A DNA stretch of 64,000 nucleotides from a virus: IMG/VR virus record IMGVR_UViG_3300013102_000002, positions 32,001 to 96,000 of that record. One strand, 5' to 3'. The translations under genes were made by a program, and so were the position numbers. Shown here piece by piece: positions 1 through 32,077 of the stretch. Below the pieces are notes generated by a model. It was not told where the DNA came from. It saw only the letters and a program-made list of their open reading frames with translations, and made no database searches. How positions within the stretch are numbered: position 1 is the first letter of the stretch; each line of letters begins with the position of its first letter.

Positions 1-3000
1 GATGCCATGCTTGGCTGCTAGATCAGATTCGACGCTTGCTAATCTTATTTTCTCTTCGGTGTTTAAAATCGTTTTTTTGGTTAGATTATCATATTCATTC
101 GATAATTCTTGTAGCTCTTTTAGACTCCCGGTTTTATCTTTAAGTTTATCTAAGCTAGTTCCAGTATCGTCCATCACTTCAGAAGCATTAGAGAAATGAC
201 CTATAACTTTTTCGAGTATAAACCCCAATCCAGCAAATGCAACCCCAACTAAACTACTGACAAGCAAAGCTCTAAGGCCAATTTTAACCGCTCCTAAGAC
301 GACTGTCATTCTACTTAGTGCTCCAGATGCAGCAGAAGCAGAAGTGGTTATACCAAATAGATTAATAATAAATGCCTTAAACGAAGCATTTAAGAGATAT
401 ACTCCAGAGGCAATTACACCAAAAATAACAGGAAGAGCACCAAATGTATCGACAGTTTTTGTTAGGGCGCTACCTAATCCTGTCATTAGCGAGGTAAGGA
501 CTACAATTGAATCAGATATTAAAGCATTACCAACGGAGAGGGAGAGGGTGTCCCAGGCTGTCTTCATCTTTTGTATTCTGGCTTCCAAGGATTGCATGAA
601 CTTGGTATTTTCGGATACGGCAGAACCTTGTGAGTGTAACGCGGTCTCTGTTGCATTTAAAGAAATCTGATAGTTCTGCATGAGGGCAAGAAACCTAGAT
701 AATTGAAATCTCAAATCTGTTACTTTCAGAATTGAATATTCAATTCCTACTGACTGCATTTTAATCAATGCAGCGGAAATGGTTCTTCTTAAAAGTGTCT
801 TTACACTTGACCATCTCTCTCTATATTACTATAGAGGTCAGACTGTAATTTTATCTCTAAATGTTTAGAGATAGCCAACGTTCAGTCGTTACGGTTCGAG
901 TTCTATTCAAATAGAACAATTACCTCGGTATTGTCCCTGTATAATAAAACAAGCTATATAGATTAAAGGTATCCCATTTGGACGATCAATCATATATTTG
1001 GCTGGTTTACAGTAGGAGTTTCACCGATATGGTTGGCAGTTCACTAATTAATCGCTTAATTAGGGGGCAGATTTTTTACCCGCGAGACTGACAGCAGTTG
1101 ACTGCTGTTGTTCCTTGGAAAGACTAGACCAGCGAGAGGCCAAATCTACCAGTATGTCAGATACATCTCGTGTTTCTCCGCTTAAATCCCTCATCTGAAC
1201 TCCAACCCCAGCAAGCACAGACTCGGAATCTTTCATGGTGGTTAAACGTGAATATATTGTTTTCAGTGAGTTCGATCTGTTATTTTCATTATGCTTATAA
1301 ACATAATTACTGACCGTAATCAGAACATTACGGCAAGAACGATTCTTCGATCGTTCCTCTCTATGTCTCCATAGAGTGCAGACTATCGCTTTATCCGGTC
1401 TGGATATCTCTACACTTAGTCGTTCACGGTGTATTTAAACTTCCGCCCTGTCTTCCTGTTTATAAGGAGTTCCAAGTCAATCAGTAGAGATTTTTCACTA
1501 ATATGTTCCCATACTAGGCGGCAACTATTTTACCGACCACTGAACCACTTTCACGTGTTGCTGTAGTAATGGCTGTCGTATTCCCGATTAACTCTTCCAT
1601 TGTTACGCCAAAAGCCTTAGCTGAAGCGCCTGCCTTTGTGATACTTAAAGCAATGTTTTGAGAGGAAATAGCAAAGTTATTATCACATTCTGTTACTTTC
1701 AGATTCTTCTTTTTGAGAATCTTACTGACTATATTCATTTTAAAATATAGCGGAGAAAACTCTTCGGATTTCTCTCTTTATGTCTCCATAAAGTTCAGAC
1801 TATCGCTTCATCCTATGTAGTAAATAGGAGCCTTTTCACTTAGTCGTTCACGCTGCTCTCGCTTGCGCCCTGTTGCCGTCACCATAGTGTGTTACGGTCT
1901 CCAAGTCAATCAGAAAAGGTTTTTCACTATACATTACTGTATAAGGAGGCAGAAATTTTTTACCTCGTTGATTTTATTTGCAACTTCAATGCTCTTACTA
2001 GCTTCCACATTAAACACCGTCATAGCAGACGTTAAAGTGTCTACGGCTTCAGCAGGAGTCAAATCTGATATATTCTGAAACAATGTTGCAGTTTTTGCTA
2101 GTTCAATTGTTTGACTTTCATCAAATCCCATCCGGGCAAAACCAATGGCGTTCTCATTTACTTCTTTAATACTTCGACCCAATTCATTCGCTAATTCAAT
2201 GCTTTTCTCTAACATGCTATCAAAATCTGTATCGTTATCCATTACGCGCTTTAATTGCGTAATTTGGCTATCCACATCGATGATTGTTCTTGTCATTTCT
2301 TTTAGTGCGCTAGTTATCCCAAAGAATACACTTCCTACTCCAGAATAGAGTAAGATATTTGACATTGCAGATTTTAAACTATCTCCAAACGTACGAGTGT
2401 GACCAGAAGTTGCTCTTGCTTCGTCTCCAATCTGTCTAATTTCGGCAACGAGTTGAGCGGCTTTAGCCTTATAATTATCAGTCGAAGTAGTTAGATTTTT
2501 TAATTGCGTCAATAGCAAATTTAGCTTTGTGGTGTCAATTTTAGAATAAGCACTGCTTAAACTTGCCACTTTCTGCTCGGCCTTGGTTTGAATCGATATT
2601 AATTCTTGTTCTGCTTTCATTTGTCTAGAGGCAAGGTCGTTTAGGGCTTTAATTCTGCGGTTAATACCATTCAGTTCACTATCTGTAAGTTGCCGACCAG
2701 ATGCTTGAATCATTGCAATTCTTTGTGCAACTTCATCATATTTACGATTAAGCAAATCTAATGCTTTTGTATTTTCAACACCAGTAACAGCAGTCGTTTT
2801 ACTCGTTGCTAATTTACTGTTTAAGTTGGTATATGTTTTAGCATCCTGAATTTCACGTTCGCGAATAGCTTTTAAATACCAATCCTCATATGCCTTTCTT
2901 GTTTGTTGGGTGCGAGAAATCTCAGCCCGTTCTAAGTCAGCATTATTCTGAATCGCTCTCTGTTGGCTCTCATTCCATTGACGCTCAAAATCCCTAGTCT

Positions 3001-3646
3001 TAGATTCGGCGGTAATTCTTCCTTGAGCCATTTGTTCAGCCAATGCCAATTCTGTTTTAGAATTTTTTGTAATTTCATTTAATTGATTTTGATTCCAGTG
3101 TCGCTGGAAGTCACGAACTCTTGATTCAGAAGCAATTCTACCTTCAGCCATTTTATTGATTAAAGACTGAAGTTCTTTTGCGTCTTTTATTTGATTCTGT
3201 ATATTGTCTATATTCTTAATGGAGCCATCGGGAAGAGTGGTTACTACCTGTTTTGCGTTTGTTTCTGTGCTTCCATATGTAGTTGTTTTAATTCCTTTAC
3301 TATTTGTTTTCTCGCGTTCAATCTGCCACTTTTTTTCAGCAGCAATAGCTTCGTTTGTTACCTTAATTTGTTCGTTAATACTTTTTGTAGTAGTATTTAA
3401 CCCATTATTAAGAGTATTGTTGGCTGAACTCTGCTGATTAATTTGTGACGTAATTAAATTAAGATTCTTAGAGAACGAGGAGAGGTTCTTAATAAAATCA
3501 TCGTTAATAGTTATATTTAACTTTAGCTTTTGAAGAGACGGATGCTTGCTCAGTTGTTCAATCGACTTATTGATATCTTTTTCTGCGCGGCTTAAATCGA
3601 GTGCAGCACTTATCAAAATCTTCATGTTATCAGCCATTATATTCAA
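1..3646 (-). CDS. Phage tail tape measure protein (5' part, runs off the window), spliced: exons 3646-1962, 1685-1532, 1272-1078, 711-<1
   Basis: Joining the exons gives a continuous frame ...KINEV|DNNFAISSQ...RESGSVVG|NSLKTIYSRL...AVSLAG|RFQLSRFLALMQN..., typical TP901-type tape measure core; long helical N-terminus; position after tail genes. Start TTG 3646 or ATG 3637. Confidence 0.92.
712..1077 (-). ncRNA. Group I intron 3 in tape measure gene (366 nt, ORF-less)
   Basis: Exon ends GCGGGU and pairs with intron GCCC (U.G wobble, P1); P3 GCCAAC/GTTGGC; P7 GACTG/CAGTC; terminal G at 712; removal restores the frame. Confidence 0.92.
1273..1531 (-). ncRNA. Group I intron 2 in tape measure gene (259 nt, ORF-less)
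   Basis: P1 CGGU/GCCG; P3 TCTCTAC/GTAGAGA; P7 GACTA/TAGTC; P9 CTCTATG-GAGA-CATAGAG with GNRA loop; terminal G at 1273. Confidence 0.93.
1686..1961 (-). ncRNA. Group I intron 1 in tape measure gene (276 nt, ORF-less)
   Basis: P1 GAGGU/GCCUC; P3 CCTTTT/AAAAGG; P7 GACTA/TAGTC; P9 CTTTATG-GAGA-CATAAAG; terminal G at 1686; splits the Val codon GT|T. Confidence 0.93.
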
Positions 3647-6612: not shown

Positions 6613-7119
6613 TCATGCGTCCAATTCATTTTCAACATTGTATCCGAGTTCAACCAGTCTCTTTTCAACCTGCTCTTCTACAAGGTTCTGAATAGTCTCT
6701 TTCAAACTTAATGTTTCAATCAGTTGCAAATCAACCTTGAACATATCTATGGGAGTAAGTTCACCCTTTTTATCTTCGAGTCGATTGCGCGTAACAGACT
6801 GAACCTGATTTGTCATGACAAACGAATCTTTGCTGAGTTGACCAATGTATTCTTTCTTTTTTAAGATCACATCAGTCATAATTGTCTTTTTTCTTATCCC
6901 TTTTTTATTAAACAATGATGTAATAGGAAGTACGACTACGGTATTCCGTGGAAATTCGCTGTCAAATAGAACGATAGCTCTATGTGTCCCACTGATAACG
7001 CATGAATCGCGTTTTATCTTTTTCTTTTCTCCACCAAAATCAACATTAAAAATCTCGCCTCTTTTGAATGACCGTTGATTACTGAATACGGTTTCTGATG
7101 CTACAATTTTATTAACCAA
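6613..7119 (-). CDS. PemK/MazF family toxin-like protein
   Basis: KRGEIFNVDFG, VVVLPITS, DSFVMTNQVQSVTRNRL...GEL motifs. Confidence 0.8.
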   Translation of the reverse strand: MVNKIVASETVFSNQRSFKRGEIFNVDFGGEKKKIKRDSCVISGTHRAIVLFDSEFPRNTVVVLPITSLFNKKGIRKKTIMTDVILKKKEYIGQLSKDSFVMTNQVQSVTRNRLEDKKGELTPIDMFKVDLQLIETLSLKETIQNLVEEQVEKRLVELGYNVENELDA

Positions 7120-7972: not shown

Positions 7973-8977
7973 TTAGCCAAAAATCTTATTTCTTTCTTCG
8001 GCAAAATCTCTAAGATCATAATGGGCTATAGTTGTAGCGATATTCTCGTGATGAGCTATATATTTTGAGACTATTTCTATAGGAACCTTTTTAACTTCCA
8101 ATAGATATGTAACACAAGACGCTTTAAAAAGATGAGGGTTTATCCGTCTTCCTAGAATATTCGAAAGAGTTTCTTTACAAAACTCATTAGCCCAAGCTTC
8201 CGACATGGAACCAACTTCTCCACCATATTTAGTAGTAAAAATATATTCTGATTCATAATCCCGTTTTTCAATCCAAAGTTTCACATACTGCAATGCTTCT
8301 TCATTCACCATATACGGCTCTTGCTTCCCATCTTCGCCCCGACCCTTCAGACGAATTATATGAGACATTGTGTAGCCGCCACCTTCAACAATAGGATAGT
8401 TAAGAATCTCAGTTTTAAACTGTGGGATCTCTGCACGTCTTGCACCTACATTAAAAGCAAATGCTACCCATGCAGCACCCAGATAGTTTTTATCATTCAA
8501 TAATGTTTCCATCAATAGATCATAATCGTCTTTTGATATTTTTACTTTTGTGTATACATGATTTTTCGATATAGCTGGTAATCCACGAGTGAAGTTTCTA
8601 AATGTTTTATAATTCTTGTCATCATCCGCAACAACATTCTCTATATAGTTAGAAAGACTTGAGACACATGCCTTGCGTAAACCGATGGCACTAGAGGACA
8701 TTTTTCTTGTGTCTCTTAAAAAACTGATATATCTTAAAAAATCTCGTTTGCTGATCTCGTGTAATGGCTTATTATTCATGCTCTTATAAACGTAATAACC
8801 GAACTGTCTTAAACATGATTTATATTGAATTTTAGTTTTCTGACTATGTGCCTGAACCGAGATGTACTCCTCGACCAAGTTACGGTAATCTTCATTGACC
8901 AGTTGCCATTTCTCTTCGTCAACAGGAGGGAGCTTGTCGGCTGTTTCTCTGAGCATATTTTTATTTATACTTACCAT
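7973..8977 (-). CDS. Tyrosine recombinase (YomM-like position)
   Basis: N-terminal SAM-like domain; GARRAEI, LKGRG, PHLFKAS, HHENIATTIAHY. Confidence 0.88.
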   Translation of the reverse strand: MVSINKNMLRETADKLPPVDEEKWQLVNEDYRNLVEEYISVQAHSQKTKIQYKSCLRQFGYYVYKSMNNKPLHEISKRDFLRYISFLRDTRKMSSSAIGLRKACVSSLSNYIENVVADDDKNYKTFRNFTRGLPAISKNHVYTKVKISKDDYDLLMETLLNDKNYLGAAWVAFAFNVGARRAEIPQFKTEILNYPIVEGGGYTMSHIIRLKGRGEDGKQEPYMVNEEALQYVKLWIEKRDYESEYIFTTKYGGEVGSMSEAWANEFCKETLSNILGRRINPHLFKASCVTYLLEVKKVPIEIVSKYIAHHENIATTIAHYDLRDFAEERNKIFG

Positions 8978-31009: not shown

Positions 31010-32077
31010 ATGAGTGCTATAACAAACAATGTAGTGGGATTACATACGGGTAGTGTGTGGGAGGATATCCAGACGCACCTAAAAGGATTTGAAAGCAAAC
31101 ACACATCTGAAAATTATGAACGTGGTTTGAGAAAGTTCTTTCAATGGTATAAAGGAAAAGATCTAGAGTTGCTAACAAGGGAAGACTTATATATCCGAAA
31201 TGCAGACGTTTTGAAATACCGCAACTTTCTAAAAGAAATACTCGATGAAGAAGGAGAAAGACAATATACAAATACTTCGATCAACAACGTCATTGCTGCC
31301 ATTCAATCACTTTATGTGTTTCTAGAAAAAAACGATTATGATGTAAAATCCGTTACCACCAGAATCAATCCACTTGCTGATGACTCGGTAAGATGTGGTG
31401 CGCTCTATACGCACGAGGCTGAAAAAATGGCAGACATTGTTGTTGATACTGTCAAAGGAATAGAAAAATCGGCATTGATTAGAATGGCATACACAACAAG
31501 CTTTCGTAAGGATTCCCTACGTAAATTAGAATGGAATGACATTGTAAAACATCCAAGTAATAAATATTACGAAGTGACTGTAATGGGTAAAGGTGGTAAG
31601 AAACATACTGTTCCAATTTCAGAAGATCTTTATCAGTATCTACTGAAGATTAAGGATCAGAAGTATTATGCGAGATATGATGATAATAAAATATTCCACT
31701 TAAGTACTGGGGCAATTCAGGATATGATGACTTTTTTGAAAAATAAACTTGGTATCCCTGAACAAAGAAATGTTGTATTCCATAGCTTCAGAAACGTTGC
31801 GTCTATGTATGGAACATTGGAAGAAGCTAAAGAGCACTACAACCACAGCAGTTACAATGTAACAGAAAAATATAGACACAAAGATAATGACATGAGTAAT
31901 AGTTTGAGTTTGAGAATTGGTGAAAAGATTGACGATGGCGTTTTTGAGGAATTAAGTAAAGAGGAATTAATTCAATTACTTATGAGACAAAACGAAGGAG
32001 TGATTCACCAAATGAAGAGAGATGCACAGAAAATTGTTAATGATAAGATTGAAAATAAAAAGGAGAGTGTTGAGTAA
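31010..32077 (+). CDS. Tyrosine-recombinase-fold protein, candidate MrpR/YopR-like repressor
   Basis: SAM-like N-terminus; TTSFRK, GKGGK, FHSFR, NHSS...KY; C-terminal LSKEELIQLL extension. The repressor role is inference. Confidence 0.8.
   Translation: MSAITNNVVGLHTGSVWEDIQTHLKGFESKHTSENYERGLRKFFQWYKGKDLELLTREDLYIRNADVLKYRNFLKEILDEEGERQYTNTSINNVIAAIQSLYVFLEKNDYDVKSVTTRINPLADDSVRCGALYTHEAEKMADIVVDTVKGIEKSALIRMAYTTSFRKDSLRKLEWNDIVKHPSNKYYEVTVMGKGGKKHTVPISEDLYQYLLKIKDQKYYARYDDNKIFHLSTGAIQDMMTFLKNKLGIPEQRNVVFHSFRNVASMYGTLEEAKEHYNHSSYNVTEKYRHKDNDMSNSLSLRIGEKIDDGVFEELSKEELIQLLMRQNEGVIHQMKRDAQKIVNDKIENKKESVE

Follow-up and report, generated by a model that had tools for sequence, protein, structure and literature searches.

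The tape measure gene of a soil phage (IMG/VR record IMGVR_UViG_3300013102_000002) very probably contains three group I introns, most likely self-splicing, which as judged from sequence comparison belong to one family specialised in the PF10145 domain of Bacillota phage tape measure genes. The virus record is complete, 174.5 kb long and with terminal repeats. The window is the 64,000-nucleotide stretch of this record that was analysed (positions 32,001 to 96,000); the gene lies on its minus strand, with the 5' part in the first 3.6 kb. Without splicing, the ORF that starts with a TTG at 3646 ends in a stop at 1934-1936; after it come shorter frames, and a frame beginning near 768 stays open to the window edge. 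Exon 1 (1962..3646, minus strand, 1685 nt) starts at this TTG and is collinear from residue 1 with the uninterrupted 2187-aa tape measure ORF of a related 166.6-kb virus (L004); left unspliced, its frame meets the stop 9 codons into intron 1 (1936..1934). Exon 2 (1532..1685, minus strand) comprises 154 nt and exon 3 (1078..1272, minus strand) 195 nt, or 65 codons. Exon 4 begins at 711, fills the minus strand to position 1 and continues past the window to genome position 28179, with a total length of 4533 nt including the stop codon. A 74-aa ORF at 1514..1738 was considered and set aside, as it is merely an ATG of intron 1 read in frame through exon 2.

Joining the four exons at the boundaries proposed in the initial annotation gave 6567 nt, that is, 2188 codons and a final stop, with no internal stop codon. 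All coordinates of the three inserts (276, 259 and 366 nt) and of the two internal exons held, as did the claim that removing the inserts restores a single frame, and the junction peptides INEVDNNF, SVVGNSLK and SLAGRFQL appear in the spliced translation as predicted. The spliced protein is 93.8% identical to that of L004. Their alignment runs ungapped through all three joints, where the residues are conserved, and is broken by one gap only, well downstream at residue 2032. L004 gave no match in Rfam. A divergent soil contig reads straight through sites 1 and 2, and three more distant relatives (L007, L009 and L010) are also continuous in this region. At the DNA level, intron 1 and exon 2 recur nearly identically in three other metagenomes, with a handful of differences, and contigs from four DNA runs contained no intron-less joint at high identity; a look-up of sequencing runs that contain the stretch returned no RNA run. 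A megablast search of phages returned no close DNA relatives; distant blastn searches found nothing in plasmids and only short core or exon matches in phages.

Assignment as a tape measure gene is based on the presence of a PF10145 (PhageMin_Tail) domain within a 2188-aa spliced protein of a tailed phage. Residues 485-564, encoded by exon 1, match profile positions 3-87, and the match proceeds consecutively through positions 87-135 on exon 2 and 136-201 on exon 3; in L004 the corresponding match is continuous over profile positions 3-199. The PF10145 region is approximately 50% identical to annotated tape measure proteins of SPbeta- and Tsamsa-like phages. As read from the DNA, production of the full-length tape measure protein would require three splicing events, which would join the four exons into an mRNA for the 2188-aa product.

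The three introns, all on the minus strand, are located at 1686..1961 (intron 1, 276 nt; site 1, NEV|DNNF; terminal G at 1686), 1273..1531 (intron 2, 259 nt; site 2, VVG|NSLK; terminal G at 1273), and 712..1077 (intron 3, 366 nt; site 3, LAG|RFQL; terminal G at 712). As had been noted on first reading, in each case the preceding exon ends in GGU, the intron ends in G, and a common motif forms the 3' tail. A covariance-model search of the 1.7-kb region with Rfam RF00028, the check put forward in the initial annotation, matched all three inserts. Intron 3 scored 72.9 bits (E = 3.7e-18; minus strand, 1087-819), above the curated gathering score of 50 bits, while intron 1 (48.9 bits; E = 5.7e-11; minus strand, 1971-1776) and intron 2 (35.8 bits; E = 4.8e-07; minus strand, 1541-1359) fell below it. 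No further RF00028 matches were present in the 174.5-kb genome, and an HMM of the intron family run over the whole genome recovered the same three introns and no others. The curated threshold thus catches one of the three introns here, so that routine Rfam annotation will under-report the family.

Each intron can be folded into a group I structure. P1 comprises 5, 4 and 4 bp in introns 1, 2 and 3 (1966..1962 with 1950..1946, 1535..1532 with 1522..1519, and 1081..1078 with 1068..1065), ending each time in a U.G pair at the 5' splice site; the internal guide would pair in this way with the exon end GGU. Helices P2 to P9, and three more hairpins toward the 3' end, are intact in all three introns (P7 of intron 1, for example, is formed by 1845..1841 with 1802..1798), and the introns would be expected to adopt the standard P3-P9 core with its P3/P7 pseudoknot. 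The sequence blocks that introns 1 and 2 had been said to share are visible in an alignment of the three introns (A1), and the additional length of about 100 nt described for intron 3 was located to an extension of P5 (about 70 nt) and to P9.1 (about 25 nt). In introns 1 and 2, P9.1 is shortened and lacks an internal hairpin that is kept in most relatives and in intron 3. This shortening, together with the scores of introns 1 and 2 under the Rfam cut-off, is what could be expected if at least one intron were a splicing-incompetent relic and the gene a pseudogene or dependent on a helper. We consider this highly improbable: none of the core helices is broken, the exons are conserved and free of stops, the genome is a complete one with terminal repeats, and other metagenomes contain the same sequence with no more than a handful of changes. 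In introns of subgroup IA, two additional helices, P7.1 and P7.2, typically lie between P7 and P3'. Introns 1, 2 and 3 have a spacer of just 3 nt there, leaving P7.1/P7.2 absent, and the introns are therefore not assignable to subgroup IA2 by these helices.

The core is supported by covariation. Alignment A2 contains 11 ORF-less members of the family, drawn from the window and six other loci; it was used in place of a MAFFT alignment of the three window introns, in which P3-P6 of intron 3 were misaligned. RNAalifold predicted 57 pairs from A2, 42 of them with compensatory changes. After the P7 pseudoknot had been added to this structure and P9.0 trimmed to 2 bp, 96.6% of cells were paired, compared with 30-47% when the partners were slid, and 43 of 60 pairs had compensatory changes on both sides, compared with 8-13 in the slid controls. 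None of 500 shuffles reached the observed covariation values. The closing pair of P7 alternates between A-U and G-C among family members, and the 2-bp P9.0 is invariant in all 11 members. The P3-P9 core, including the P3/P7 pseudoknot, is thus supported by covariation within the family.

P9.0 is formed by a CA in the conserved 3' tail, which pairs with a UG located just after P7. Such a pairing is the usual device for docking the terminal G of group I introns; it explains the conservation of the 3' tail and would bring the terminal G into the core. At the exon side, hand pairing of the sequence yielded a P10 of 6 bp in intron 3 (1074..1069 with 3' exon positions 711..706) and of 4 bp in intron 2 (1526..1523 with 1272..1269); that of intron 1 is weak, with about three of five positions paired. 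At the joint of intron 3 and exon 4, the same hexamer is repeated in the 3' end of the intron (712-720) and in the first six bases of the exon (706-711), and the P10 guide at 1074..1069 can pair with either one. Cutting at G 712 alone keeps the conserved frame; use of G 717 would add 5 nt and break it.

The identical 3' tails and P9.0 pairings of the three introns raise the question of exon skipping, in which an upstream ribozyme would use a downstream 3' splice site. Skipping of exon 3 would keep the frame, its 195 nt being divisible by three, and would shorten the protein by 65 aa; clustered group I introns are reported to cause exon skipping in Twort orf142 and in a Bacillus phage polymerase gene (PMC11878797). 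Against this, hand pairing gives the P10 guide of intron 2 a better fit to exon 3 than to exon 4, and the skipped product would miss a third of the conserved domain, which together make the reading extremely unlikely. It is likewise very doubtful that the 3' splice sites are interchangeable to the extent that one gene gives rise to two tape measure forms; if it were true, exon 3 skipping would amount to production of two forms of the tail ruler at the RNA level.

The family extends well beyond this genome. A scan with a pattern composed of the end of P7, the conserved linker and the 3' tail retrieved 51 further loci, 41 in IMG/VR and 10 in bacterial genomes, with hosts including Virgibacillus, Paenibacillus, Bacillus, Clostridia and Faecalibacillus. 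About 40 of 57 intron copies are located in tape measure genes, where they occupy only a few positions: 15 at site 1, before DNNF; 7 at site 2, before NSLK; 7 at site 3, after AG; 8 a few codons further on from site 3; and 3 further downstream in the gene. This domain of approximately 200 residues is thus a common landing pad, with at least five insertion points, for one intron family in phages and prophages of Bacillota. Family members were also observed elsewhere. One with the same 3' tail lies in a large terminase gene (L041:2646-4185), and four loci (L016, L019, L020 and L026) carry members in a gene whose downstream exon starts with CxWFNGYEE; this gene had no match in Pfam.

The fullest occupation was observed in a related 152.5-kb phage (L028, IMGVR_UViG_3300012153_000089), which has four introns in its PF10145 domain (L028:780-3420), at 792-1059, 1139-1452, 1528-1795 and 1991 to about 3411. 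Three stand at the sites used in the window, and an extra intron of 314 nt, inserted at FG|V, splits the equivalent of exon 2 into 79 and 75 nt, which together make up the same 154 nt. The last intron of L028, about 1.4 kb long, probably carries an ORF. In a prophage of Virgibacillus profundi P3-H5 (L053; NZ_NPOA01000004.1, approximately 250-2500), sites 1, 2 and 3 all appear to be filled, to judge by the gaps in a tblastn alignment, and a prophage in a cultured bacterium offers a possible laboratory system for splicing.

The core of intron 2 is 85-89% identical to the site-2 introns of other phages but shares just 70% identity with the neighbouring intron 1, indicating that the introns go with their sites and did not arise by recent copying from one another. 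Intron 1 is about equidistant from all other members, and the best relative of intron 3 is an intron at the same site in a Paenibacillus prophage (L057). A tree of 11 introns was poorly resolved except for a site-1 clade. Rfam gave no match in loci L007-L011 and five sub-threshold matches in L022 to L057; most relatives either scored 31-41 bits or were missed altogether. This sparse sub-threshold recovery indicates that Rfam is insensitive to the family.

None of introns 1-3 has ORF-sized room for an endonuclease, in line with their initial description as ORF-less, and neither a DUF559 match nor a homologue of the intron ORF of L008 was present in the genome to which the window belongs. By the criterion of a homing endonuclease, none of the three classifies as a mobile intron. 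At site 2 of related large phages, longer introns were found (L008:3433-4836, 1404 nt, and L011:3433-4797, 1365 nt), which have their P1 type and 3' tail in common with the window introns and contain ORFs of 362 or 376 aa matching DUF559 (PF04480, a Vsr-like nuclease). The DUF559 score lies above the curated cut-off in L008 and just below it in L011. Its position places the ORF in the P6 loop, with the 3' end overlapping the ribozyme core. On this sequence match, the DUF559 ORF is a candidate homing endonuclease, of a class uncommon for phage introns. A reading of these 1.4-kb in-frame inserts as inteins was rejected because their frame is full of stops and their ends are intron-like. In the introns of the window, a homing endonuclease gene may have been lost or may never have been present.

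The exons around the introns bear a trace of how they may have been acquired. A patch of 721 nt of exon sequence (598..2219, minus strand; CDS nt 1428-2148, codons 476-716), which corresponds approximately to the PF10145 domain and includes all three intron sites, is 68.9% identical at the nucleotide level to the intron-less L004, compared with 89.7% outside the patch (Fisher P = 1e-44). This mosaic pattern suggests that the patch and the introns arrived together through recombination with a less closely related phage, in the manner of co-conversion during homing; the introns would then probably have entered along with about 720 nt of flanking exon. The coincidence of the patch with the PF10145 domain could also be read as fast evolution of the domain itself, an explanation that is conceivable in strict terms. 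The patch resembles a recombination scar, and copies of the family are known both with and without a DUF559-type endonuclease, which makes the gene suitable as a natural system in which to study the spread of endonuclease-less introns between phages.

A stop codon lies in frame 9, 6 and 6 codons into introns 1, 2 and 3, respectively (1516..1514 in intron 2 and 1062..1060 in intron 3), and relatives have one in the same place. Such stops may keep ribosomes out of the ribozyme. They also mean that unspliced RNA would yield truncated products only, and with the full-length protein depending on three splicings, they bear on a checkpoint proposed in the initial annotation, by which splicing would delay or gate tape measure synthesis and tail assembly and the introns would be kept for that purpose. 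This proposal found no support in comparison with relatives and is very unlikely. A 93.8%-identical gene functions with no intron at all, 0, 1, 2, 3 or 4 introns are present in the PF10145 domain depending on the relative, some copies carry putative homing endonucleases, a hallmark of selfish spread, and the sequence indicates no sensor. The close intron-less relative and the variable intron number argue instead that the introns act as dispensable selfish elements, and we infer that they are passengers of the tape measure gene rather than regulators of it.

Introns in tape measure genes have been published before, in 2008 and 2023, and this gene is a further example of a known phenomenon. Tourasse and Kolsto (2008) described group I introns TMP-IVS1, IVS2, IVS3a and IVS3b at three sites in the tape measure genes of Bacillus cereus-group prophages, with IVS1 and IVS2 as a related pair that differs chiefly in P1, an intron of another kind at the third site, and no ORF in most of the introns (PMC2504315); the same paper also records an intron in the tape measure gene of Lactobacillus phage JCL1032. 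Introns 1 and 2 here are similarly akin, with P1 as their main difference, and intron 3 is the more divergent one. In contrast, the B. cereus prophages detailed in that paper have two introns per gene, whereas all three sites are filled here, and IVS1 and IVS2 were published as IA2 (PMC2504315), whereas in the present introns P7 and P3' are just 3 nt apart. The tape measure gene of plasmid pBWB404 gave no useful tblastn match to the window protein, and sites were therefore compared via Pfam coordinates. Exon 1 of the plasmid gene ends after a GGT codon at PF10145 profile position 201, the position of site 3 here; unlike intron 3, the pBWB404 intron lacks the family signature and has no Rfam match.

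A second published case is the tape measure gene of Vibrio phage ICP1, which contains an intron with an HNH endonuclease whose splicing was demonstrated by RNA-seq and RT-PCR (Barth et al., 2023; PMC10448857); the tape measure gene is called "frequently interrupted" in that study. ICP1 resembles the window in having an intron-interrupted tape measure gene and differs in its Gram-negative host, its single endonuclease-carrying intron and its unrelated tape measure sequence. The initial annotation had named orf142 of Staphylococcus phage Twort, a late tail tube gene with three group I introns and exon skipping (Landthaler and Shub, 1999, as cited in PMC11878797), as the precedent. What had been omitted are the tape measure introns themselves (PMC2504315 and PMC10448857), and because of these Twort orf142 is not the closest precedent. 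In both cases one virion gene holds a cluster of three group I introns that are small, related and free of ORFs. The two cases differ in gene, host and phage type, and splicing and skipping are experimental in Twort, whereas here splicing is predicted from sequence. What is added here is the filling of three sites by ORF-less copies, the probable recombination patch, and a simple signature that retrieves a large family of introns, most of them in tape measure genes.

The expectation that automated annotation would split such a gene is borne out by Geobacillus virus E3 (KP144388). Its homologous tape measure gene contains a 304-nt group I intron (L005:1783-2086; 48.7 bits in Rfam), and the record lists gp42, "tape measure N-terminal", and gp43, "C-terminal", as two CDSs of what is really one intron-split gene. 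The E3 intron lies at the same NEVDNNF motif as site 1, in a large siphophage of Bacillota. Unlike the window gene, that of E3 has a single intron, which is positioned 4 nt downstream of site 1, has another 3' end and carries an insert of about 40 nt after P7. For the gene described here, gene callers will report an essential gene as four fragments. A few kilobases upstream of it, among ORFs without a Pfam match, lie an ORF for a PemK/MazF-like toxin (window 6613-7119, minus strand; PF02452, E = 2.8e-12) and one for a tyrosine recombinase/integrase (window 7973-8977, minus strand; PF00589).
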